A stretch of DNA of 64,000 nucleotides, taken from assembly GCA_963809895.1 (NCBI GenBank), contig CAWELD010000003.1:992001-1056000 (forward strand). Reading direction: 5' to 3'. The notes under the pieces are model-generated. The model made no database searches, had not been told where the DNA came from, and was given only the letters and a program-made list of their open reading frames with translations. Position numbers and translations under genes: made by a program. Below, piece by piece: positions 30,329-43,229 of this stretch; positions within the stretch are counted from its first letter, which is position 1, and each line of letters opens with the position of its first letter. The DNA comes from an uncultured Gemmatimonadales bacterium (GTDB lineage: Bacteria > Gemmatimonadota > Gemmatimonadetes > Longimicrobiales > Gaopeijiaceae).

Positions 30329-31564
30329 ATGAGGGCGATGACCTCGAGGACCACGGGGATCGTAGCCGTGGTGTCGCTCGTCGCGTGCGGGGGACCCCGC
30401 ACCGGTGACGAAGCGACGGAGCAGGTGCAGACCGAGCAGCACGGAGACACCACCATCGTCCGCACCATGGCCGGAAGCCGGTGGGACGCCCCCCGGCAAC
30501 TGGTGATCGACCTCGAGATCGGGACCCTGGACGGCCCGGAGGAGACCATGTTCGGGCGCGTAGGCGCCCTGGCGGTGGATGGCTCCGGGGGCGTGTACGT
30601 CTACGACGGTCAGGCGCCGGCGATCCGCTACTTCGACGCTCAGGGCGATTTCGTGCGGCAGGTGGGCGGCGAAGGCGAGGGCCCCGGCGAGTACAAGGAC
30701 GCGGTCCTGGGGATGGCAGTCCGCAGCGACGGACGCCTGGAGATCCGGGACGCGCGCAACGGGCGGGTGACGCTCTACGACCCCGACGGCTCCTTCTCCG
30801 ACCAGTGGCTCGTGGCCAGCGGCCTCTTCACGAGCCAGGCCATGTTCGTGGACCGTCACGACCACACCTACCTCAAGATCCTGCAGGAGCAGCCCAGGCA
30901 GGGAGAAAACTGGAAGATCGGACTCCTGCACTACGACCCCGACGGCAACCTCGTGGATACGGTGCCCGACCCCTGGGTGCCGGATCCGCCTCCGGCGAAC
31001 GGAGGTTCGCTCTCTCCCTCGAAGCAGTGGACCATGGGGCCCGACGGATCCATCATCGTCGGCGTCAACTCCAGCTATTCCTTCGAGGTCCGGCAGCCCG
31101 ATGGTACGGTGCTCCGCGTGGAGCGATCGGTCCCCCTCCAGCCGGTGAGCGACGCCGAGCACGCGGCGTACGAGGAGCTGCGAGAGTACCTCATCCGGGA
31201 GCAGGGCCAGTTCATGACGACTCTGCCCGGCCCCACGGCCCACACCAAGCCCGCCTACCGGGGCCTCTTCCCCGGCGAGGACGGCACCGTGTGGGTCCGG
31301 CTCTACGGCCCCGTCCATCCCAAGCCCGACTACGTGCCTGCGGAGGAGGGCGAGAGACCCGTGTGGCCGTTCATCGAGGAGAGCCGCTTCGACGTCTTCG
31401 CCAGCGACGGCTCGTATCTGGGCGAGGTCCGCGTGCCGGCGGGTGTCAGCATCGCGGTGTTCGGTCTGGACGACCTGTGGGGCACCCGCCGGGGAGATCT
31501 CAGCGAGAGCTACGTCGTGCGCATGCACCTGGAGCCGCTGACGACAGTGGCGGACGAGGGGTAG
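30329..31564 (+). CDS. 6-bladed beta-propeller (NHL-like) lipoprotein
   Basis: Lipobox LVAC; 'GGEGEGPGE', 'FDVFASDGSYLGEV'; GGGAGG RBS. Confidence 0.8.
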   Translation: MRAMTSRTTGIVAVVSLVACGGPRTGDEATEQVQTEQHGDTTIVRTMAGSRWDAPRQLVIDLEIGTLDGPEETMFGRVGALAVDGSGGVYVYDGQAPAIRYFDAQGDFVRQVGGEGEGPGEYKDAVLGMAVRSDGRLEIRDARNGRVTLYDPDGSFSDQWLVASGLFTSQAMFVDRHDHTYLKILQEQPRQGENWKIGLLHYDPDGNLVDTVPDPWVPDPPPANGGSLSPSKQWTMGPDGSIIVGVNSSYSFEVRQPDGTVLRVERSVPLQPVSDAEHAAYEELREYLIREQGQFMTTLPGPTAHTKPAYRGLFPGEDGTVWVRLYGPVHPKPDYVPAEEGERPVWPFIEESRFDVFASDGSYLGEVRVPAGVSIAVFGLDDLWGTRRGDLSESYVVRMHLEPLTTVADEG

Positions 31565-32739: not shown

Positions 32740-34704
32740 ATGATCGGGAATCACTGGACGAGCCGGACGGCCCGTCGGCTCCTGGCGGCGGCCGCGGCGG
32801 CGATGCTGGCCGCGTGCACCGGGCAGGGCGGCGACGGAGCCGGCGGTGCCTCGGTTCAAGACCTCATGAGGACCCGGAACCTCAGCGAAGCCGACGTCGT
32901 GGCGGCGCTCAAGACGTACACGCCGACCGGTCGCACCGACCCCTTCGTGATGTTCGCCTCGGGCGGCCACAGCGGTCAGGTGCTGGTGATCGGCGTCCCC
33001 TCGATGCGGATCCTCAAGTACATCGGCGTCTTCACGCCCGAGCCCTGGCAAGGCTACGGCTTCGACGACCAGACCCGGGAGCTCATGACCGCGAGCTCGC
33101 CGGCGGGCAAGTCCCTCACCTGGGGCGACAGCCACCATCCGGCGCTCAGCGAGACCAACGGCGACTACGACGGGCAGTTCCTCTTCATCAACGACAAGGC
33201 GAACGCCCGCATCGCGGTCGTCAGCCTGAAGGACTTCGTGACCACGCAGATCGTGCACTCACCGATCCTGGGCACGGACCACGGCGGCAGCTTCGTCACG
33301 CCCAACACCGAATACGTCATCGAGGGTGGGCAGTACCCGGTGCCGCTCGACGGCAGCTATCAACCCATCTCGAGCTTCGACGACACGTACCGCGGAGCGG
33401 TCATGTTCTGGAAGTTCGACCGCGACAGCGGCCGTATCGACCCTTCGCAGTCCTTTGCCCTGGAGCTGCCGCCCTACATGCAGGACCTCTCCGACGCGGG
33501 CAAGCTCGTGAGTGACGGCTGGGCGTTCATCAACTCGTTCGACACCGAGCGCGCGCACGGTGGCAACGCGGAGGGTCAGCCCCCGCTCGAGTCGGGCGCG
33601 TCGCAGAACGACATGGACTACCTGCACGTCATCAACTGGCGAAAGGCCGCCGACGTGGCCACCGAGCCCGGGAAGACGCGCACGATCCGCGGCGTGCGGG
33701 TGATCCCGCTCTCCACGGCGGTCGACGAGGGCCTGCTCTACTTCGTGCCCGAGCCCAAGAGCCCGCACGGTGTCGACGTGACCCCGGACGGACAGTACAT
33801 GGCCATCTCGGGCAAGCTCGACACGCACGAGACGGTCTACTCGTGGGCCAAGATCAAGCAGGCGATCGACGACGGCGACTTCGAGGGCAACGACCCCTAC
33901 GGCGTGCCGATCATCGGCTTCCAGACCGCGCTGCACGGCCAGGTCGAGCTCGGCCTGGGACCGCTCCACACCCAGTGGGACGACCAGGGCAACGGCTACA
34001 CGTCGCTCTTCATCGAGTCGAAGATCGCGAAGTGGTCGCTGCAGGACATGGCGCTCGTGGAGAAGATCCCGGTGCACTACAACATCGGCCACCTCGCCAC
34101 GCCCGAAGGCGACACCCAGCACCCGAAGGGCCAGTACGTGATCGCGCTCGACAAATGGTCGATCGACCGCTTCAACAACGTCGGGCCGCTCATGCCGCAG
34201 AACATGCAGCTAATCGACGCCAGCACATCGCCGATGCAAATGCTGTACGACCTGCCCATCGGCCTGGGTGAGCCGCACTACGCGCAGATCATCAGCGCGG
34301 ACAAGCTCGATCCCCAGCAGATGTACAGCCCGGTCGGCGAGAACCAGGTCACGCACCAGCACGACCCCAACGCCGTGACGTCCGAAGCGGACGCTCGGGT
34401 GGAGCGCCACGGGCGCTCGGTGGACGTCTACATGACGGCGGTGCGCAGCCACTTCACGCCGGACCGCGTGGAGGTGAACCGGGGCGACACGGTGCACTTC
34501 CATCTGACCAACCTCGAGCAGACGCCGGACGCCACGCACGGGTTCGGCCTGGGCGAGTACGACGTGAACCTGAGCCTCGAGCCCGGGAAGACCGCCGACG
34601 TCACGATCGTGGCCGACAAGACCGGTGTCTTCCCCTACTACTGCACCGAGTTCTGCTCGGCGCTGCACCTCGAGATGATGGGCTACATGCTCGTCAAGCC
34701 ATGA
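32740..34704 (+). CDS. nosZ: Nitrous-oxide reductase, clade II (Sec/lipoprotein type)
   Basis: CuZ His motifs DSHH, DHG, PHG, LHT, GHL, EPH; CuA 'CTEFCSALHLEM'; 'GVPSMRILKYI'. Confidence 0.97.
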   Translation: MIGNHWTSRTARRLLAAAAAAMLAACTGQGGDGAGGASVQDLMRTRNLSEADVVAALKTYTPTGRTDPFVMFASGGHSGQVLVIGVPSMRILKYIGVFTPEPWQGYGFDDQTRELMTASSPAGKSLTWGDSHHPALSETNGDYDGQFLFINDKANARIAVVSLKDFVTTQIVHSPILGTDHGGSFVTPNTEYVIEGGQYPVPLDGSYQPISSFDDTYRGAVMFWKFDRDSGRIDPSQSFALELPPYMQDLSDAGKLVSDGWAFINSFDTERAHGGNAEGQPPLESGASQNDMDYLHVINWRKAADVATEPGKTRTIRGVRVIPLSTAVDEGLLYFVPEPKSPHGVDVTPDGQYMAISGKLDTHETVYSWAKIKQAIDDGDFEGNDPYGVPIIGFQTALHGQVELGLGPLHTQWDDQGNGYTSLFIESKIAKWSLQDMALVEKIPVHYNIGHLATPEGDTQHPKGQYVIALDKWSIDRFNNVGPLMPQNMQLIDASTSPMQMLYDLPIGLGEPHYAQIISADKLDPQQMYSPVGENQVTHQHDPNAVTSEADARVERHGRSVDVYMTAVRSHFTPDRVEVNRGDTVHFHLTNLEQTPDATHGFGLGEYDVNLSLEPGKTADVTIVADKTGVFPYYCTEFCSALHLEMMGYMLVKP

Positions 34705-36053
34705 CCACCGCCGTGCCGAGAAGCCACAGGATCGCCAGGATCGGCGTGGCCCTCGCGGTCGCGTGTGTGCTGATCGCGGCACGGCGAACCGGTACGTCTC
34801 CGGCGGCGCCCGACCGGTCTCCGGTCGCGGCGCCTGCCGGCGGCCATGAAGCGGCCTGCCCTGCCGACGGCGTGCGGGTCCCGGCCGACACCCCCCTTCA
34901 ACCCCTCGTCGACTCCACGGCGGCCGGCACGGTGCTCTGCCTCGCGCCCGGCCACTACGAGGGCCCCCTCGAGATCCACAGGTCCCTCACGCTGCAGGGT
35001 CCGGCGACGGCGGTACTCGCCTCCGACGGCCAGGGCACCACGCTCCGCCTGCTGGCCGACAGCGCGGCGATCGAGGGATTCACGGTGGAAGGAAGCGGAC
35101 GGCGCTACGACAAGATGGACGCGGCCGTCTACCTGAAGGGACGAGCCCTCACGGTCCGGAACCTCACGGTGCGGGACGCATTGTTCGGCATCGTGGTCGA
35201 GCAATCGGAAGGCGTGACCATCGCCGCCAACCAGGTGTTCGGCCTGGCGGATCTGCCGGTGGGCGTGCGCGGAGACGGCATCCGCCTCTGGGAGGTGCGC
35301 CACTCCCTGATCGTCGGGAACCACCTGGAGGACTCGAGAGACATCCTGGTGTGGTACTCGCCGGGCAACCGGATCACCCACAACACGGTGGTCGGCAGCC
35401 GGTACGCCACCCACTTCATGTACTCGGACGACTGCGTGGTGGACAGCGCCGACTACCGGCAGAACATCGTGGGCGTGTTCGTGATGTACTCGCGCGGTGT
35501 CACCCTCGTCGGCAACACCATCGCGGACAACGCCGTGGCCGACGGCATGGGGCTGGGCGTGAAGGAATCCGGCAATCTGACGGTGGTGGACAACCGCTTC
35601 GTCCACGACCACGACTGCCTCTACCTCGATACCTCCCCGTTCCGTAAGGGCGACACCGTGCTGGTGCACGGCAACACCTTCGCGCGCTGCGACGCGGCCG
35701 TGACGTTCCACTCGAGCGAGCGGCACAACACCTTCACGGACAACGCCTTCCAGGACAACCAGATCCACGTGGCCGTGGAGGGCCGCGGCACGGCGCGCGA
35801 CGTGGTCTGGGAGGGCAACTACTTCGACGACTACCAGGGCTACGACCTGGACGGTGACGGGCGGGGTGACGTGGCCTACGAGCTACGCAGCCTCTCCGAG
35901 CAGCTCGTACAGGGCCATCCCCGCCTGGCGTTCTTCAGGGGGACCATCGCGCTCGCGTTGCTCGACGTGGCCGCGCGCGTGTTCCCCCTGCTTCAGCCCG
36001 AGACCCTTCTGGTGGACCCACAGCCTCGCATGGCCCCTCCGGGTGCCGTGTGA
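34701..36053 (+). CDS. nosD: Nitrous-oxide reductase maturation protein NosD
   Basis: Beta-helix; 'RGDGIRLW', 'RYATHFMYS', 'GNYFDDYQGYDLDGDG'. Confidence 0.93.
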   Translation: MTTAVPRSHRIARIGVALAVACVLIAARRTGTSPAAPDRSPVAAPAGGHEAACPADGVRVPADTPLQPLVDSTAAGTVLCLAPGHYEGPLEIHRSLTLQGPATAVLASDGQGTTLRLLADSAAIEGFTVEGSGRRYDKMDAAVYLKGRALTVRNLTVRDALFGIVVEQSEGVTIAANQVFGLADLPVGVRGDGIRLWEVRHSLIVGNHLEDSRDILVWYSPGNRITHNTVVGSRYATHFMYSDDCVVDSADYRQNIVGVFVMYSRGVTLVGNTIADNAVADGMGLGVKESGNLTVVDNRFVHDHDCLYLDTSPFRKGDTVLVHGNTFARCDAAVTFHSSERHNTFTDNAFQDNQIHVAVEGRGTARDVVWEGNYFDDYQGYDLDGDGRGDVAYELRSLSEQLVQGHPRLAFFRGTIALALLDVAARVFPLLQPETLLVDPQPRMAPPGAV

Positions 36054-36072
36054 GCGGAGGCGAGAGAGGACG

Positions 36073-36834
36073 ATGCGCGTAGAGCTGCGTGACGTGACCA
36101 AGCGCTTCGGGGGTGTGCGGGCGCTCGAGTCGGTCTCCCTGGACGTCGCCGCGGGCGACCGCGTCGCCCTGGTCGGCCCGAACGGGTCGGGCAAGTCGAC
36201 GCTCGTGCGCGCCATCATGGGCATCGTACACTGCGAGGGCACCGTTCGACTGGACGGGCTCGATCCCTTCGAGCACCGCACCCGACTCGCCGCGCGCCTC
36301 GCCTACGTGCCGCAGATCGCCCCGCAGCTCGGCGCCACCGTGGGTGAGGTGGCCCGGGCCGTGGCGACACTGCGCGGCCTCGACCCGGCCGACATCCGAA
36401 GCACGGCCGCGGAGATCGATCTGGACCTGGATGCGCTCGGGCGGAGGCCGGTCCGCACGCTCTCCGGGGGAATGAAGCAGAAGCTGCTCATCAGCCTGGC
36501 GTTCGCGGCTCCAGTGTCCCTGCTGATCCTGGACGAGCCCACGGCCAGTCTGGACAAACAGGCCCGGGAGGCGTTCTTCCGGCTCTTCGAGGAACGCGCC
36601 GAGGGCGCCACCCTCCTGCTCTGTTCGCACCGGCTCGACGAGGTGCGTCGGCTGGTGGGCCGCGTGGCCGCCGTCGAAGACGGACGCCTGGTGCTGGACG
36701 CATCGGTGTCGGCGCCGGAAGTGGCCGAACGGCTCCACCACGGAGCGTGGTGGCAGGAGGTGCGCGACGTGGCCCGCCGGGAGAAGCCGAGGTTCCCCGA
36801 CGAGCGGGCGCTGGCCGCCGGAGGGTACGCGTGA
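36073..36834 (+). CDS. nosF: ABC transporter ATPase NosF
   Basis: 'GPNGSGKST', 'LSGGMKQK', 'LDEPT'; position in nos operon. Confidence 0.88.
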   Translation: MRVELRDVTKRFGGVRALESVSLDVAAGDRVALVGPNGSGKSTLVRAIMGIVHCEGTVRLDGLDPFEHRTRLAARLAYVPQIAPQLGATVGEVARAVATLRGLDPADIRSTAAEIDLDLDALGRRPVRTLSGGMKQKLLISLAFAAPVSLLILDEPTASLDKQAREAFFRLFEERAEGATLLLCSHRLDEVRRLVGRVAAVEDGRLVLDASVSAPEVAERLHHGAWWQEVRDVARREKPRFPDERALAAGGYA

Positions 36835-37727
36835 GCGCCCGGACGGCGGCGGCCGGGACACCGCTGGATGGCGCGGCCGTGCCGATTCCCGAGCGCTGGC
36901 AGCGCCTGGCCGCACTGGCTCGCCTCGAGCTCGGCGAGGTGCTGCGCTCGCGGTGGCTCCTGTTCTGCGCGGGGCTGTACGCCGCGCTCGCGGCGCTCTT
37001 CATCGTGGTCGGGCTGCGCGAGTCCGGCGTGATGGGCTTCACGGGCATGTCGCGCGTGCTGCTCTCGCTCAGCCATGCGCTGGTGGTCCTCCTGCCCCTG
37101 CTGGCGCTGACCGGGACCGGGCAGGTGGTGAGTCGGGCGCGTCGGGACGGCACCCTGGAGCTTCTGTTCAGCCAGCCGGTCACGCGCGCGGACTACTTCG
37201 GCGCGGTCACCATGGTGCGCTACGGCGCCCTCTTCGTGCCGCTGCTCGTGCTGATGCCCACCCTGGCCGTCGTCGGATCGCTCGTGTTCGGGCAACCGGT
37301 GCCCTGGGCCTTCCTGGCCCGCGCGCTCACGGTCAGCGCCGCCCTGCTCTGGAGCTTCACGGGCATCGGGCTCGCCATCTCCACCCGGGTGAGCGAGCCC
37401 GATCGCGCCATGATGTACCTGCTCCTCGCATGGGTGCTGGGCGTGGCCCTGCTCGATTTCGGGCTCGTGGGGCTGATGCTGCAGTGGGACCTGCCGGCTG
37501 CCGCCGTGTTCGCGCTGGCCGGCCTCAACCCGGTGGAGATGGCCCGCCTGGCGCTGCTCTCGGGGGCCGAACCCTCGCTCGGTACGCTGGGACCGGTAGG
37601 ATTCTGGATGTCTGGCCGCCTCGGTTCAGCATGGCTCTTCGCGGCCGGTGTGCTCTGGCCGCTGCTGGTCGGCTCGGGCGCATGGTGGATGGCCCGGCGG
37701 CGGCTGTCGACGGGCGATCTGGTGTGA
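36831..37727 (+). CDS. nosY: ABC transporter permease NosY
   Basis: Multi-TM; 'LELLFSQPVTR', 'LNPVEMAR'. Confidence 0.85.
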   Translation: MSARTAAAGTPLDGAAVPIPERWQRLAALARLELGEVLRSRWLLFCAGLYAALAALFIVVGLRESGVMGFTGMSRVLLSLSHALVVLLPLLALTGTGQVVSRARRDGTLELLFSQPVTRADYFGAVTMVRYGALFVPLLVLMPTLAVVGSLVFGQPVPWAFLARALTVSAALLWSFTGIGLAISTRVSEPDRAMMYLLLAWVLGVALLDFGLVGLMLQWDLPAAAVFALAGLNPVEMARLALLSGAEPSLGTLGPVGFWMSGRLGSAWLFAAGVLWPLLVGSGAWWMARRRLSTGDLV

Positions 37728-37793
37728 CGACGAAGACCTGGACGGATGCGGCGAACGACGGGCCTCGATACGGGCCCATGGAGGGATAGAACG

Positions 37794-38450
37794 GTGACGC
37801 TGGAAAACAAACTGCGGCCCCTGGTGGACCGCTTCGAGGAGTTCCTGGACGAGCCGATCCGGTTTCGCAGCCGGATCCTGCTGGCGCTGTTGGTGATTCC
37901 GCTCGTGCTCAGCTTCACGCAGCCGCTCTGGCGCATCAGCATGGAGGCGCCACAGTACCCACAGGGGCTGCACATGGACGTGTACGCCTACAAGCTGAGC
38001 GGCGGGCACGACGGGCACGACATCGCCGAGATCAACGAGCTCAACCACTACATCGGGATGCGCAGGATCGAGCGGGCCCAGTTCCAGGACCTGGACTGGA
38101 TCCCGTTCGCGCTCGGGCTCCTGACCATCCTCACGCTGAGGGCCGCCGCCATCGGCAAGGTGCGCTCGCTCATCGACCTGAGCGTGATGACGCTCTACAT
38201 CGGCGCGTTCTCCATGGCCCGCTTCGTCTACAAGCTCTGGGTGTTCGGCCACGACCTCGATCCGCGCGCGCCCGTGAACATCAAGCCCTTCATGCCAGTG
38301 GTGGTGGGCACGAAACAGGTCGCCAACTTCACTACCCACTCCTGGCCGAACTGGGGCACGGCGCTCATGTCGACCTTTGCGGTGGGCGTCCTGGGGATCG
38401 CGGTCTGGCACTGCTGGGTGGGCTACCGGGAGGCCTGGGTAAAACGGTAG
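37794..38450 (+). CDS. nosB: NosB-like membrane protein of clade II nos clusters
   Basis: 'LWRISMEAPQYPQGL', 'INELNHYIGM', 'FGHDLDP.AP', 'GTKQVANF'. Confidence 0.8.
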   Translation: MTLENKLRPLVDRFEEFLDEPIRFRSRILLALLVIPLVLSFTQPLWRISMEAPQYPQGLHMDVYAYKLSGGHDGHDIAEINELNHYIGMRRIERAQFQDLDWIPFALGLLTILTLRAAAIGKVRSLIDLSVMTLYIGAFSMARFVYKLWVFGHDLDPRAPVNIKPFMPVVVGTKQVANFTTHSWPNWGTALMSTFAVGVLGIAVWHCWVGYREAWVKR

Positions 38451-39311: not shown

Positions 39312-39385
<74 letters not shown>

Positions 39386-40252
39386 GGATGCTATGAACAC
39401 GTCTAGCGCAATTACCTCGATTCCTGGCACGATTTGAGCTGTAGAACTCCGTGCGCTGCTGGGGCGCATATCGGGCACAAGCGCTGGCCAGCTTCACTCC
39501 GAGTCCCTCTCGACCTCGTCCACGAGGTCCCGCGATCTGACCGTGTAGCCCTCGACCACGCAGATCCTGATGTCCGGACGCACGTTCATCGGCGGGAGCT
39601 GATCGGAAGCCCATCGTACAAAGGCACCCGGCTCAAGTCCATTGGAGACGGCGGCCGGAACTCCGAGCGTCAGACGGTACCTGCGTAGCGGCACGGGTCG
39701 GACCTCCCCGTCCTGAGGGTCCACAGGGTCCTGAAGGGGAACGCGAGGGAATCTCTCATACCTTCCCCCCGTCGGGAACCCCCAGTGGCCTATTCCACTG
39801 CTCGCGACCGACCCCATCTCCTACTGACGCGCATCTGCAAGAACCCGAGGACGGCGAGGTCGCCTCTCGTCGAAGGGCAATCCGAGGACTGTGGGTGGTG
39901 GTCGGTCACCTGTTTCCCCTGCCCGAGGACTGCGAAAGCTCCGCCTTCCGCGCCGCCAAGCGGGTGACCGATGGATGTCGCGACCAAGACACTGTGGCGA
40001 TCGGCGCAGACCGGCCTGAGCGGCTCGAGGGCCCTGCGATGTGGAGGGTGCGAGGGACTAGCCAACGGGCAGATCCCGAGCCTCGAATGACACGAGCCTG
40101 GCAAGGCCGCAAAGCCTTGCGGGCTCGTCTCAATCCAGAGCGGGCGACCGCGCTCAAACCTGCGACCCGCAGCATATGCTTGCGGGAATCCTGCCTCGGC
40201 AGTAGATAGCGGATAGGCTGGCCTATCCCACGGTGGCGGCAGCGCACCCATC

Positions 40253-40825
40253 ATGATCGTACCCCACGACGGCGACGTGGACCTCTTCGAGCAGTTCTAC
40301 CGGGACTGGTGGGAGAAGGTGAGGAGCACGGCGAGGACCTTGCTCGGGTCGGATGACGAGGCGCAGAATGCGGCACAACGCGTATTCGCACGCGTCTGGC
40401 GCACCGGTGCATGGAGGACCATCGAACGGCCTGGGGACTTCTTCCACAGGGCGGCCGTGAACGAGGCCTTGAGCATACAGCGGCGGCAGACGCGAGCCGA
40501 CAAGTTCAGCCGTCAACTCGCCAGGGTGGATCCTCTCGTTCCCGAGAGTCCCGACGCGCCGCTGATCCGTCACGAGCGACGCGCGATACTCGAACAGATG
40601 ATCGAGCGATTGCCCCACCGCTGTGGTATCATCTGCCGACTCGTGTACCTGCACGAGTTGACGCACAGCGAGGCGGCGCGCGCGCTGGGGATATCTGTAG
40701 GCGCCGTCGAGAAACAAGTGGCTCGGGCCCGCCGCAGCCTTCGGAGCCTGGCCGGAGAACCGCGTGATGCTGTGTCACCTATTGAGGTCGGGGGGGGGGG
40801 TGGAGGGGGTTCGCACGTCTCATAG
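40253..40825 (+). CDS. ECF (sigma-70 group 4) sigma factor
   Basis: Region 2 'FEQFY...AQNAAQRVFARVW'; region 4 'LP.RC..I..L...ELTHSEAARALGISVGAVEKQVARA'. Confidence 0.85.
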   Translation: MIVPHDGDVDLFEQFYRDWWEKVRSTARTLLGSDDEAQNAAQRVFARVWRTGAWRTIERPGDFFHRAAVNEALSIQRRQTRADKFSRQLARVDPLVPESPDAPLIRHERRAILEQMIERLPHRCGIICRLVYLHELTHSEAARALGISVGAVEKQVARARRSLRSLAGEPRDAVSPIEVGGGGGGGSHVS

Positions 40826-40925
40826 GGTGAACTGCGGATCACGAATGTGTCCGCGCTTGGCCCCCATGGAGAGCGTGTGGGATCGTGGGGCGCCACCACC
40901 CTGTCCCTGTCGATGGAGGGATCCG

Positions 40926-41171
40926 ATGAACATCCTCAAGTCCGCTCGTGTGAGACTTCTCCTCGTCGCGAACGCGATCGCCTTTGCGTTCATGTTCGCC
41001 AGCGCCGCATCAGTGCGAGCCGACGGCGAAGGATGGGAGACCTTCTGTCCGCCGACGGTCGAGGGGTGCGACTGTGGCCCGGAGATACCCTTCTCCCCGG
41101 CTGGCTGTTACGACAACGGTGGGGATATCATCCTCTGCTCGTCGAACGCGTACTGCACCAACCCTGAATAG
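40926..41171 (+). CDS. Secreted small Cys-rich peptide (81 aa precursor, 6 Cys in mature part)
   Basis: GGAGGG RBS 5 nt before ATG; Sec signal ending 'SVRA'; mature 'DGEGWETFCPPTVEGCDCGPEIPFSPAGCYDNGGDIILCSSNAYCTNPE'. Confidence 0.75.
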   Translation: MNILKSARVRLLLVANAIAFAFMFASAASVRADGEGWETFCPPTVEGCDCGPEIPFSPAGCYDNGGDIILCSSNAYCTNPE

Positions 41172-41340
41172 CCGAGGAACGCGTGGCACCCCGCGAGAGT
41201 GGGGTGCCACGCACGGCAACCCGCCCATCTTCGCGCGGCGGGGAAGCGCGCGACCAGTCACCAGCCCCCGGTGTCCGATCGGCTCTGGCAAGTCCGAAGA
41301 GCACGTTGGACTCCGCAGTCGCTATCGGAGGCCATGCCCA

Positions 41341-42567
41341 ATGCCCGTCTCGAAATGCACCGTCTCGCTCGCGCTGCTGGGCTGTCTGGCCGGTGGCGTC
41401 ATGGGCGGGTGTGCGGACGTCGACCCACCGTCCGCGGCCATCGTGACAACAGACACGATCAACCGTGTCGTTCACGTGGCCAACCACGGGAGCGGGGCAT
41501 GGACTCCTGAGACGGCCTGGCGGGTGCGCGAGGTCTTCCGCCTGGGTGGCAGAGCGGAGCCGGCTGAACAGCTCTTCACGAGCCAACTCCTGGGCGCGGG
41601 TATCGGTCCTCGCGGAGATGTCTACGTGCTCGACCATCTGGCCGGCTTCATCTCGGTCTTTGGGGTAGATGGTCGGCTGATTCGAACCATCGGGCGGCGC
41701 GGCAGGGGGCCCTCCGACCTGGCCGCACCTACGGGTTTCACGTGGAGTGACGACGGGCATCTGTGGGTGTCCGATCCCGGAAACCGGAAGTACGCCGTGT
41801 TCGACACCACGGGAGCCCTGGTCGGCACCCACCTGCGCTCGGTTCAGGGATATCCCAGACGCCAGTACCCGTTGGTGTACGATTCGCAGGTTGGAATCAT
41901 CGATGAGGCTGCCTGGAGGGGGAGCCTGGTCCTCCTCCGGACCACCGTCGACGGGGAAGTCCACGACACGCTGATGATCATCGACCGCACCGGAAGCCCG
42001 TCTCAGGCGATGATGGATGCCTATGCACGGCTTCGCGGCCGTCCCGGGCCAGAGCTTGCGCGGGTAAATCAGTTCTACTCAAACCGAATGAAATGGGCGC
42101 TCGACCCCTCTGGAGGAATCTGGACAGGCTCACCAGCGGAACTCCGCTTCGTCAAGCGTGGCTGGAATGGTGACACGCTTCTGGTGGTCACGGCGGACCA
42201 TCGAGACGCAGAGCTCACGCCCGAAGATGAGCAGTTGATCTCGACTGCCATGCGCCAGGGCGACCTCACTCGTGACGAGATCAATCCGATCCGCCCACTC
42301 TTTCAGGCACTTCACGTGATCGAAGGCGGCTATCTGCTCGTGCAATTGGTGGATACGCCTGGCGTCGCTTCGCCTCGTTTTGACGTCTACGATCCGGCGG
42401 GCCGCTACCTTGGCGAATTGGACCTCGGATTCGCCCCCGACCGTTTGGGGACTCTGGGGGGTCGCGGCGACCTGATCGTCGCGCCGATGCTCGGAGACCT
42501 TGATGTGCCCTACGTCGTGGGCGTCGAAGTGATCCGTCCTTCTGCGGGGGCGTCCGGTCGCCCATGA
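41341..42567 (+). CDS. 6-bladed beta-propeller (NHL-like) lipoprotein
   Basis: Signal ending 'MGGC'; 'GRRGRGPSDL..P', 'FDVYDPAGRYLGEL'. Confidence 0.78.
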   Translation: MPVSKCTVSLALLGCLAGGVMGGCADVDPPSAAIVTTDTINRVVHVANHGSGAWTPETAWRVREVFRLGGRAEPAEQLFTSQLLGAGIGPRGDVYVLDHLAGFISVFGVDGRLIRTIGRRGRGPSDLAAPTGFTWSDDGHLWVSDPGNRKYAVFDTTGALVGTHLRSVQGYPRRQYPLVYDSQVGIIDEAAWRGSLVLLRTTVDGEVHDTLMIIDRTGSPSQAMMDAYARLRGRPGPELARVNQFYSNRMKWALDPSGGIWTGSPAELRFVKRGWNGDTLLVVTADHRDAELTPEDEQLISTAMRQGDLTRDEINPIRPLFQALHVIEGGYLLVQLVDTPGVASPRFDVYDPAGRYLGELDLGFAPDRLGTLGGRGDLIVAPMLGDLDVPYVVGVEVIRPSAGASGRP

Positions 42568-43229
42568 CTCACTCCACGAGGAGCCACCGCAACTGGACCG
42601 AACGGCTTACCACTGTTCTTCTGGGCGTCAGCCTCGTCGCGGTCGTAGCCGTGTGGGTCGCCCGCCGGCCGGTGCGACCGCGGGTCATCCCGCCGATGGC
42701 CGTGTACAGTTCTGCCGTTTCCGATAGCGTCTGGGACGCGCTTGTCCAAGGCGGCCATACGACTGGAGATCGGGATGCGAGCGACACCTTGGTCGTCTTC
42801 TCCGACTACGAATGTCCGATCTGCAGGGCGGTAGCTCCGCGGCTCGACAGCCTACTGCTTCTACGGCCTCACCTCGCCGTCCTGCATCGCCACTTTCCCC
42901 TTCCAACCCATCCTCATGCGTTCGAGGAAGCACTCGCTGTTGAGTGTGCCGGTCGATTGGGCAAGCTCGCTGAAGGCCAGAAGGCCATGTACGCCAGGGG
43001 CGGCACTGCGGTAGATCCGACGGATGTGGCCAGGCAGTTGGGGATTGCGTGGGCTAGCTTCGACGAGTGCTGGCAAGGGGCGGACGCGCGCTCAGCTGTG
43101 GAGGCTGACTTTGCTCTCGCCATCGACCTGGCGCTGCCCGGCACCCCAAGCGTCTTCTTCTCGGGGCAGCGCTGGAGTCACTTCCCGGATCTTCAGCAGC
43201 TCCTCCAGTTGACCGAACCGGCAGGATGA
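42564..43229 (+). CDS. Membrane-anchored DsbA/thioredoxin-like oxidoreductase
   Basis: 'FSDYECPIC', 'RHFPL', cis-Pro 'GTPS'; N-terminal TM; ATGA overlap with the propeller gene. Confidence 0.88.
   Translation: MTHSTRSHRNWTERLTTVLLGVSLVAVVAVWVARRPVRPRVIPPMAVYSSAVSDSVWDALVQGGHTTGDRDASDTLVVFSDYECPICRAVAPRLDSLLLLRPHLAVLHRHFPLPTHPHAFEEALAVECAGRLGKLAEGQKAMYARGGTAVDPTDVARQLGIAWASFDECWQGADARSAVEADFALAIDLALPGTPSVFFSGQRWSHFPDLQQLLQLTEPAG

Follow-up and report, generated by a model that had tools for sequence, protein, structure and literature searches.

What is made by a bacterial gene block that sets an extracytoplasmic function (ECF) sigma factor and a very short cysteine-rich open reading frame (ORF) ahead of a beta-propeller and a DsbA-like protein? 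The block lies at positions 40253-43229 (+ strand) of a 64,000-nucleotide stretch, here called the window, of contig CAWELD010000003.1 from an uncultured Gemmatimonadales bacterium. An earlier note, made from the letters alone, had read it as a dedicated pathway that makes and folds a disulfide-rich peptide signal or toxin. ORF calls and profile scans returned all four co-oriented genes at the positions given there. The gene layout is beyond chance, and the cassette is real, conserved and apparently undescribed; a literature search covering few subscription papers found no description of it. For its function we put forward, as a tentative reading that falls somewhat short of probable, an inserted cassette for a DsbA-folded, bacteriocin-like mini-protein with the propeller as immunity binder.

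The peptide gene and the recurrence of its neighbourhood

The 81-residue precursor (40926-41171, +) is preceded by a GGAGG ribosome-binding site (40915-40919, +) and has a hydrophobic N-terminus that ends V-R-A. With cleavage assigned by the A-x-A rule, it divides into a predicted Sec signal (residues 1-32) and an acidic mature part of 49 residues, which holds nine Asp or Glu, no Lys or Arg (net charge -9) and six Cys separated by x6, x1, x10, x9 and x5. The earlier note had listed the strong ribosome-binding site, the Sec-type signal, the acidic mature part and the Cys spacing, and all were found. Its label knottin/defensin-like finds no support as worded: the peptide is acidic, has no Pfam, NCBIfam or PDB match, and yielded no usable fold. 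Among 5.8 billion proteins only the peptide itself was retrieved, and its atlas matches were all below 0.8. A peptide from genome G012 was rejected as a homologue, its short-motif score of 48 lying between those of unrelated peptides (49 and 47), though only 18 of 5000 Cys-fixed shuffles reached 48. A low-depth metagenome contig over 41005-41155 carries 10 differences; four of the six listed are synonymous, one of these four lying in a Cys codon. Of the sequencing runs listed, none was an RNA holder.

Because the peptide is an orphan, the DsbA-like gene served as the search handle. A first set of 15 homologous DsbA loci came from 14 of 250 genomes of the class, and at 10 of the 15 a Cys-rich gene with a signal peptide lay no more than 1.5 kb away. 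The profile made from 14 of these loci plus the window gene found matches in 97 of 401 genomes of the phylum, at most seven copies in each, and the best 60 of 172 matches, none used in the profile and drawn from 44 genomes, formed a held-out set. Peptide genes were those from our own gene caller with a hydrophobic N-terminus and at least four Cys; the caller rewards ribosome-binding sites and Cys-rich ORFs, and absolute counts are approximate. L104, a stray sequence of 100 bases, entered none of the counts. Such a gene was present at 51 of the 60 held-out loci with a limit of 170 residues and at 50 with a limit of 120; weaker DsbA loci (n = 14) gave six peptide-like genes, three with propellers. 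Propellers occurred at 42 of the 60, and peptide plus propeller at 39; with one locus counted per genome, 38 of 44 genomes carried a peptide gene. The 70 DsbA loci taken from other phyla gave no propeller and seven filter-passing genes, and only L111 looked cassette-like by eye.

The conserved gene neighbourhood that the earlier note had proposed as a check is therefore present. Of its dedicated pathway, the recurrent linkage of an exported even-Cys peptide with both a propeller and a DsbA-like enzyme stands, whereas the ECF is not constant, other cassettes carrying AraC-type or other regulators. That the small ORF is spurious, or that the four genes are a chance assembly, is extremely improbable. 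The lack of any peptide homologue speaks for such an artefact, which is largely refuted by the recurrence among the 44 genomes and by counts in the window's genome, where a propeller stands no more than two genes away from 15 of the 27 filter-passing genes, versus 6.8% of all genes; for small signal-bearing genes without Cys the figure was 38 of 356. The mostly synonymous changes of the variant contig also count against it.

Mature Cys counts were even in all 64 short cassette peptides (11 with four, 21 with six, 30 with eight and two with ten), with no count of five, seven or nine, and stayed so under four cleavage rules; note that the four-Cys threshold itself favours even counts in spurious ORFs (28 even and 12 odd among raw candidates). 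Together with the synonymous-biased variant contig, the even counts are the pattern expected of disulfide-bonded exported products. Cys spacing is not conserved across cassettes, with 59 patterns among the 64 peptides, and for none of 65 peptides did Pfam or NCBIfam give an E-value below 0.003.

These counts bear on another reading, in which the peptide is a metal-binding stress buffer of reduced Cys and acidic residues, kept reduced by the thioredoxin-fold protein. Its acidic, Cys-rich composition would suit that role, and the solved relatives of the DsbA-like protein include ScsC-type copper-resistance proteins. Even Cys numbers throughout, the lack of a common spacing motif and a His content of only 1.5% argue the other way, as do the 84 scanned neighbours, among which no modifying enzyme or metal transporter recurs. 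We consider a metal buffer very unlikely.

Peptide genes share the strand of DsbA in 62 of 63 cases. A ribosome-binding site precedes 55 of 64 peptide genes, 31 of 62 DsbA genes and 18 of 59 propeller genes, and a strong hairpin follows 21% of peptide genes versus 2% and 4% of DsbA and propeller genes. In the window, a 14-bp GC-rich hairpin with no U tail lies after the peptide stop (41181-41212, +; -35.9 kcal/mol for a 50-nt fragment) and is likely to serve as a stabiliser of the mRNA or as an attenuator. Neither a sigma-70 promoter nor a terminator with a U tail stood above chance.

Genome G000 also encodes a longer class of signal-peptide Cys-rich proteins of 120-170 residues (C3:661338, 934502, 1056402, 1569122, 2226362 and 2644518; C8:20811; C10:521146, 1008328 and 1009723). 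Usually, six Cys lie in the first half of the protein and a further one in a similar, hairpin-like stretch near the C-terminus, and nearly all adjoin propellers without a DsbA of this subfamily. At G000 C3:658771-668395, a peptide-propeller pair sits amid insertion sequence (IS) elements, together with an S8-like gene and a fragment resembling an ATP-binding cassette (ABC) exporter (named by eye). Membrane-anchored proteins of 150-200 residues were seen in other cassettes (L240:4905-5516, L109:2625-3104, L040, L043 and L073); that of L240 has a weak Redoxin match (E 0.003) and may replace DsbA. Three Myxococcus/Archangiaceae records (L152, L155 and L157) have a membrane-anchored 8-Cys protein of ~114 residues directly upstream of the DsbA-like gene, and no propeller.

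Enzyme, propeller and a bacteriocin-related cargo

The last gene (42564-43229, +) encodes a 221-residue DsbA-like thioredoxin-fold protein, anchored by an N-terminal membrane segment and bearing CPIC, a second Cys pair and a T-P motif; its start overlaps the propeller stop (ATGA), as the earlier note had seen. It scores above the cut-offs of PF01323 (49.8 bits) and PF13462 (44.9 bits), and across 15 DsbA-like sequences CPxC is invariant and TP is present in at least 90%. The window's genome has one DsbA of this subfamily, together with two VKOR and two DsbB genes. The neighbouring DsbA-like enzyme very probably oxidises the peptide.

Upstream of it (41341-42567, +) lies the gene of a 408-residue predicted lipoprotein with a lipobox-like Cys and an NHL-type six-bladed beta-propeller. 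Its DUF5128 (PF17170) score of 21.2 bits is just below the cut-off of 22.9, and it matched DUF5128/NHL clusters in the atlas at 0.97. A structural model built from 19 sequences (predicted local distance difference test 87.5, predicted template modelling score 0.85) had NHL six-bladed domains as its top matches. In an alignment of 53 propeller sequences, the columns with at least 60% conservation are mostly Gly, Pro and blade residues, with a few Asp, Glu or Arg and no His or Cys; it was on these columns that the propeller was compared with the catalytic six-bladed propellers PAL, SMP-30 and Vgb. Cassette propellers have a median identity of 25% and are about as divergent as the peptides. A second propeller gene of the window (30329-31564; DUF5128 34.4 bits) is peptide-less, and G000 C3:3160000-3360000 holds a dense array of ~24 peptide-less propeller genes, one of which is adjoined by a VKOR gene at 3319861.

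The only functional lead for the cassette is, by annotation, a fulvocin C-related protein (NF033852) that serves as cargo elsewhere. Locus L062 has an ECF (42% identical), the promoter-like motif described below, an NF033852 protein (79.8 bits against a cut-off of 35), a propeller and a DsbA, which is the window's order, and its ECF was the best homologue of the window ECF among the loci then collected. Of 301 genomes of the phylum, 12 encode NF033852, and nine of 13 matches above the cut-off have a propeller within 1.5 kb. Seven of these propellers, four of them from one genus, cluster in a tree (two changes versus 6.8 when shuffled). Fulvocins are cited as myxobacterial ribosomally synthesized peptides modified after translation (RiPPs) or bacteriocins in the part of PMC8708641 that was available. 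The fulvocin C-related protein occupies the same slot at L062 as the peptide does in the window; the window peptide differs in lacking the pro-domain at the N-terminus and in giving no match to the model, and no NF033852 member was found in the window's genome.

If the product is a bacteriocin-like mini-protein, the ECF would fire a promoter in its own 3' end, and the strong ribosome-binding site and hairpin would favour the peptide over the downstream genes. Sec would export the peptide, the anchored DsbA-like enzyme would oxidise it to three disulfides and be reoxidised by a VKOR or DsbB of the genome, and the producer would be protected by the propeller lipoprotein, to which the peptide would bind. 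The binding, the toxicity and the immunity are what we infer. Several observations weigh against this scheme. The cassette peptides are acidic (median net charge -5; at least +2 in one of 64), unlike cationic antimicrobial peptides. The window peptide itself has no NF033852 match, and the NF033852 name is, in this phylum, an annotation. No outer-membrane export gene is present in the cassette. Of the 51 peptide-bearing loci, 12 lack a propeller within ~4 kb, which counts against immunity because immunity should be obligatory. The five nearest propellers in relatives all lack a peptide within 1.5 kb, and a 65%-identical propeller (L190/L191, on short contigs) keeps its DsbA (53%) but has directly upstream a different gene, and no peptide gene. 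Kin also share cassettes, so the counts overstate independence. Prediction of a peptide-propeller complex scored 0.02, in a run in which the controls likewise did not fold, and it speaks for neither side.

The propellers of the window's genome (~100 paralogues versus ~16 peptide genes) give weight to a second proposal, that the peptide diffuses as a signal or serves as a tag of kin identity, with the propeller as its cognate receptor and the peptide-less propellers as listeners to the peptides of other strains. Hypervariable acidic peptides with variable partners would fit this, as would the PDZ, CarboxypepD_reg/TonB-like and regulator genes that adjoin some cassettes. However, the cassette has no anti-sigma, kinase or other signal output, and a bacteriocin-related protein can fill its cargo slot; that no sensor or anti-sigma is there to relay a signal was counted in favour of a bacteriocin. 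A signal or tag is rather unlikely in our view. Two further features of the propellers were also counted in favour of a bacteriocin. Peptide-adjacent propellers in this genome have a lower G + C content at third codon positions (GC3) than peptide-less ones (0.67, n = 14, versus 0.83, n = 77), with both kinds intermixed in a FastTree of 88 sequences with many weak branches, which together fits binders retained after peptide loss; and in the three closest pairs, related peptides accompany related propellers. Over all 741 locus pairs, peptide and propeller identities showed no correlation (rho 0.01), most pairs being at noise level.

The propeller could instead be a folding or export chaperone that partners the DsbA-like enzyme, with the mini-protein acting as an enzyme inhibitor, a surface ligand or in some other extracellular job. 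The ATGA overlap of the two genes and their adjacency at L190 are consistent with such a partnership. SOQ1 and NHLRC2, in which thioredoxin-like and NHL-propeller domains are fused, were among the PDB sequence matches. DsbI of Epsilonproteobacteria joins a DsbB-like domain and a propeller (PMC4460558, in the portion available). All three couple a redox domain to a beta-propeller, and unlike the cassette they are fused proteins without a peptide gene or ECF. Many cassettes with DsbA and a peptide lack a propeller, and ~100 propellers stand against one DsbA of the subfamily in the genome; a chaperone role is judged unlikely.

A promoter-like motif within the ECF gene

The first gene (40253-40825, +) encodes a 190-residue ECF sigma factor with regions 2 and 4 only, matched by TIGR02937 (70 bits, above cut-off), PF08281 and PF04542. 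It belongs to a small subfamily (4 of 251 genomes at E 1e-18) and falls outside the FecI/ECF240 type with FecR-like anti-sigma (TIGR02985 85.8 bits against a cut-off of 126.4). No anti-sigma gene lies beside it, the next gene being that of the peptide. The ~870 bases upstream (39386-40252), partly covered by metagenome contigs and without a convincing gene, likely hold the control of the ECF itself.

Within the 3' end of the ECF gene (40773-40825, +) is a promoter-like motif conserved across loci. In the window, an imperfect dyad (40773-40789, +) is followed by a run of 11 G (40790-40800, +), a 16-nt spacer and a -10-like element (40817-40825, +); the consensus is an imperfect dyad, G6-11, 14-16 variable nucleotides and a GTCTAT-like element. 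Searching 161 family genomes for the dyad plus G run gave 14 matches in seven genomes, whereas the reversed pattern, used as control, gave none. The run of 6-11 G was present in 13 of the 14, and 11 of these 13 close an ECF gene of the same subfamily. A conserved protein tail was rejected as the source, the motif being read in two different ECF frames (four versus seven loci), and the constraint therefore acts on the DNA. The end of the G run and the downstream element are 14-16 bases apart in most copies regardless of run length, which would fit -35/-10 spacing. Of seven matches outside the set from which the pattern was built, four were intact cassettes recovered by the motif alone (ECF, motif, propeller and Cys-rich gene), two were decayed cassettes and one was an orphan motif.

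ECF groups often have promoter motifs and neighbourhoods in common, according to the part of PMC7826278 that was available. We think it probable that this ECF controls the motif, as a predicted promoter in its own 3' end. The earlier note had cast the ECF as activator; a promoter-like motif does accompany this subfamily, which lends that role indirect support, and other cassettes have other regulators.

The G11 run, among only 11 G or C runs of at least 10 in the genome, is a possible slippage site. Other loci also carry the motif. The locus at G000 C3:3675723-3676958 has a paralogous ECF, a 5-Cys peptide gene that abuts an IS, and an additional region-4 fragment, and at C3:2056800-2057400 another paralogous ECF locus is frameshifted ahead of S8-like fragments. 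Decayed cassettes 3' of the motif (L108:1640-2150 in G011 and L107:4480-5000 in G274) show, in one, a short start and then a DsbA-like C-terminal fragment and, in the other, a frameshifted Cys-rich ORF. A sub-lineage of these ECF cassettes (L226, L231 and L233) has a conserved Cys-poor small ORF 3' of the motif.

Known systems and the insertion site

The cassette would work like a bacteriocin operon that has its own oxidase, yet it could be assigned to none of the named families with which it was compared. Among the closest known layouts are those of bacteriocins. The sublancin 168 operon consists of sunA, sunT, bdbA, sunS, bdbB and, in addition, sunI (PMC6391423 and PMC6606811, as far as their available text goes). 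In the same sources, sublancin 168 and enterocin F4-9 each have, on mobile DNA, a bacteriocin gene, a thiol-disulfide oxidoreductase dedicated to it and a separate immunity gene, which resembles the make-up proposed for the cassette. Unlike them, the cassette has no glycosyltransferase or leader-cleaving ABC exporter, and neither appears among the 84 scanned neighbours; it also differs in its Sec-type signal, its propeller, its ECF and the hypervariable, acidic nature of the peptides. EntV of Enterococcus faecalis is an antimicrobial peptide exported by Sec and oxidised by DsbA, much as proposed for the window peptide, but has one disulfide, a dsbA unlinked to entV and no propeller, in the available portion of PMC6606811.

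The window propeller scores near the cut-off of DUF5128. A similar layout is that of the NVEALA (PF14055) and DUF5128 neighbourhoods of Bacteroidota, in which a six-bladed propeller has a small protein with Cys as its neighbour. PF14055 was matched by none of the 65 cassette peptides; it was also not found in the window's genome, in a search whose control likewise gave no match. The word NVEALA is in no paper of the literature searched, and that system therefore seems uncharacterised too.

New here are the ECF-linked promoter-like motif and a fulvocin C-related protein as cargo of an ECF-motif-cargo-propeller-DsbA locus. Most mini-proteins with several disulfides are known from animals, plants and fungi. 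In this abundant and barely cultured phylum, the DsbA subfamily is carried by nearly a quarter of the sampled genomes (97/401), and most sampled loci encode an unrelated candidate with two to five disulfides that family libraries miss (0/65 confidently matched). Such mini-proteins can be mined readily with the DsbA profile and the ECF motif; they would offer new stable scaffolds, and their folding enzyme would cope with very different cysteine patterns; the very large expansion of DUF5128-like propellers would gain its first functional lead. A bolder proposal, which we hold to be doubtful, is a library of venom-like disulfide mini-proteins that would span the phylum and be swappable, every member having an oxidase of its own and a matched propeller binder, in which accumulated orphan propellers would be a memory of rivals' peptides and a slippage-prone G run between dyad operator and ECF promoter would tune or switch each cassette.

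The compositional oddity noted earlier was borne out: the cassette has a GC content of 0.63-0.66 versus about 0.70, and a GC3 of 0.70-0.77 versus a genome median of 0.89, a GC3 of at most 0.77 occurring in 5% of genes. The tRNA-Arg beside which the earlier note had put it is tRNA-Arg(CCT) (39312-39385, -); the cassette sits 5' of this tRNA gene, and a search for att-like repeats gave none. Integration directed by the tRNA was rejected on this ground and because tRNA genes were present at only one of 53 cassette or ECF loci scanned. The yqaA locus was recovered from five of 19 same-genus genomes. In G011, yqaA is followed by tRNA-Arg(CCT) ~0.9 kb on, with no cassette between; of the other four loci, three stop at or near contig edges and one holds other genes. 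The block is read as a putative strain-level insertion, on the one informative locus of G011. Relatives of the DsbA-like protein and of the propeller point to Gemmatimonadota. Upstream of the tRNA, positions 32740-38450 hold what we take to be a nosZ/nosD-like cluster.

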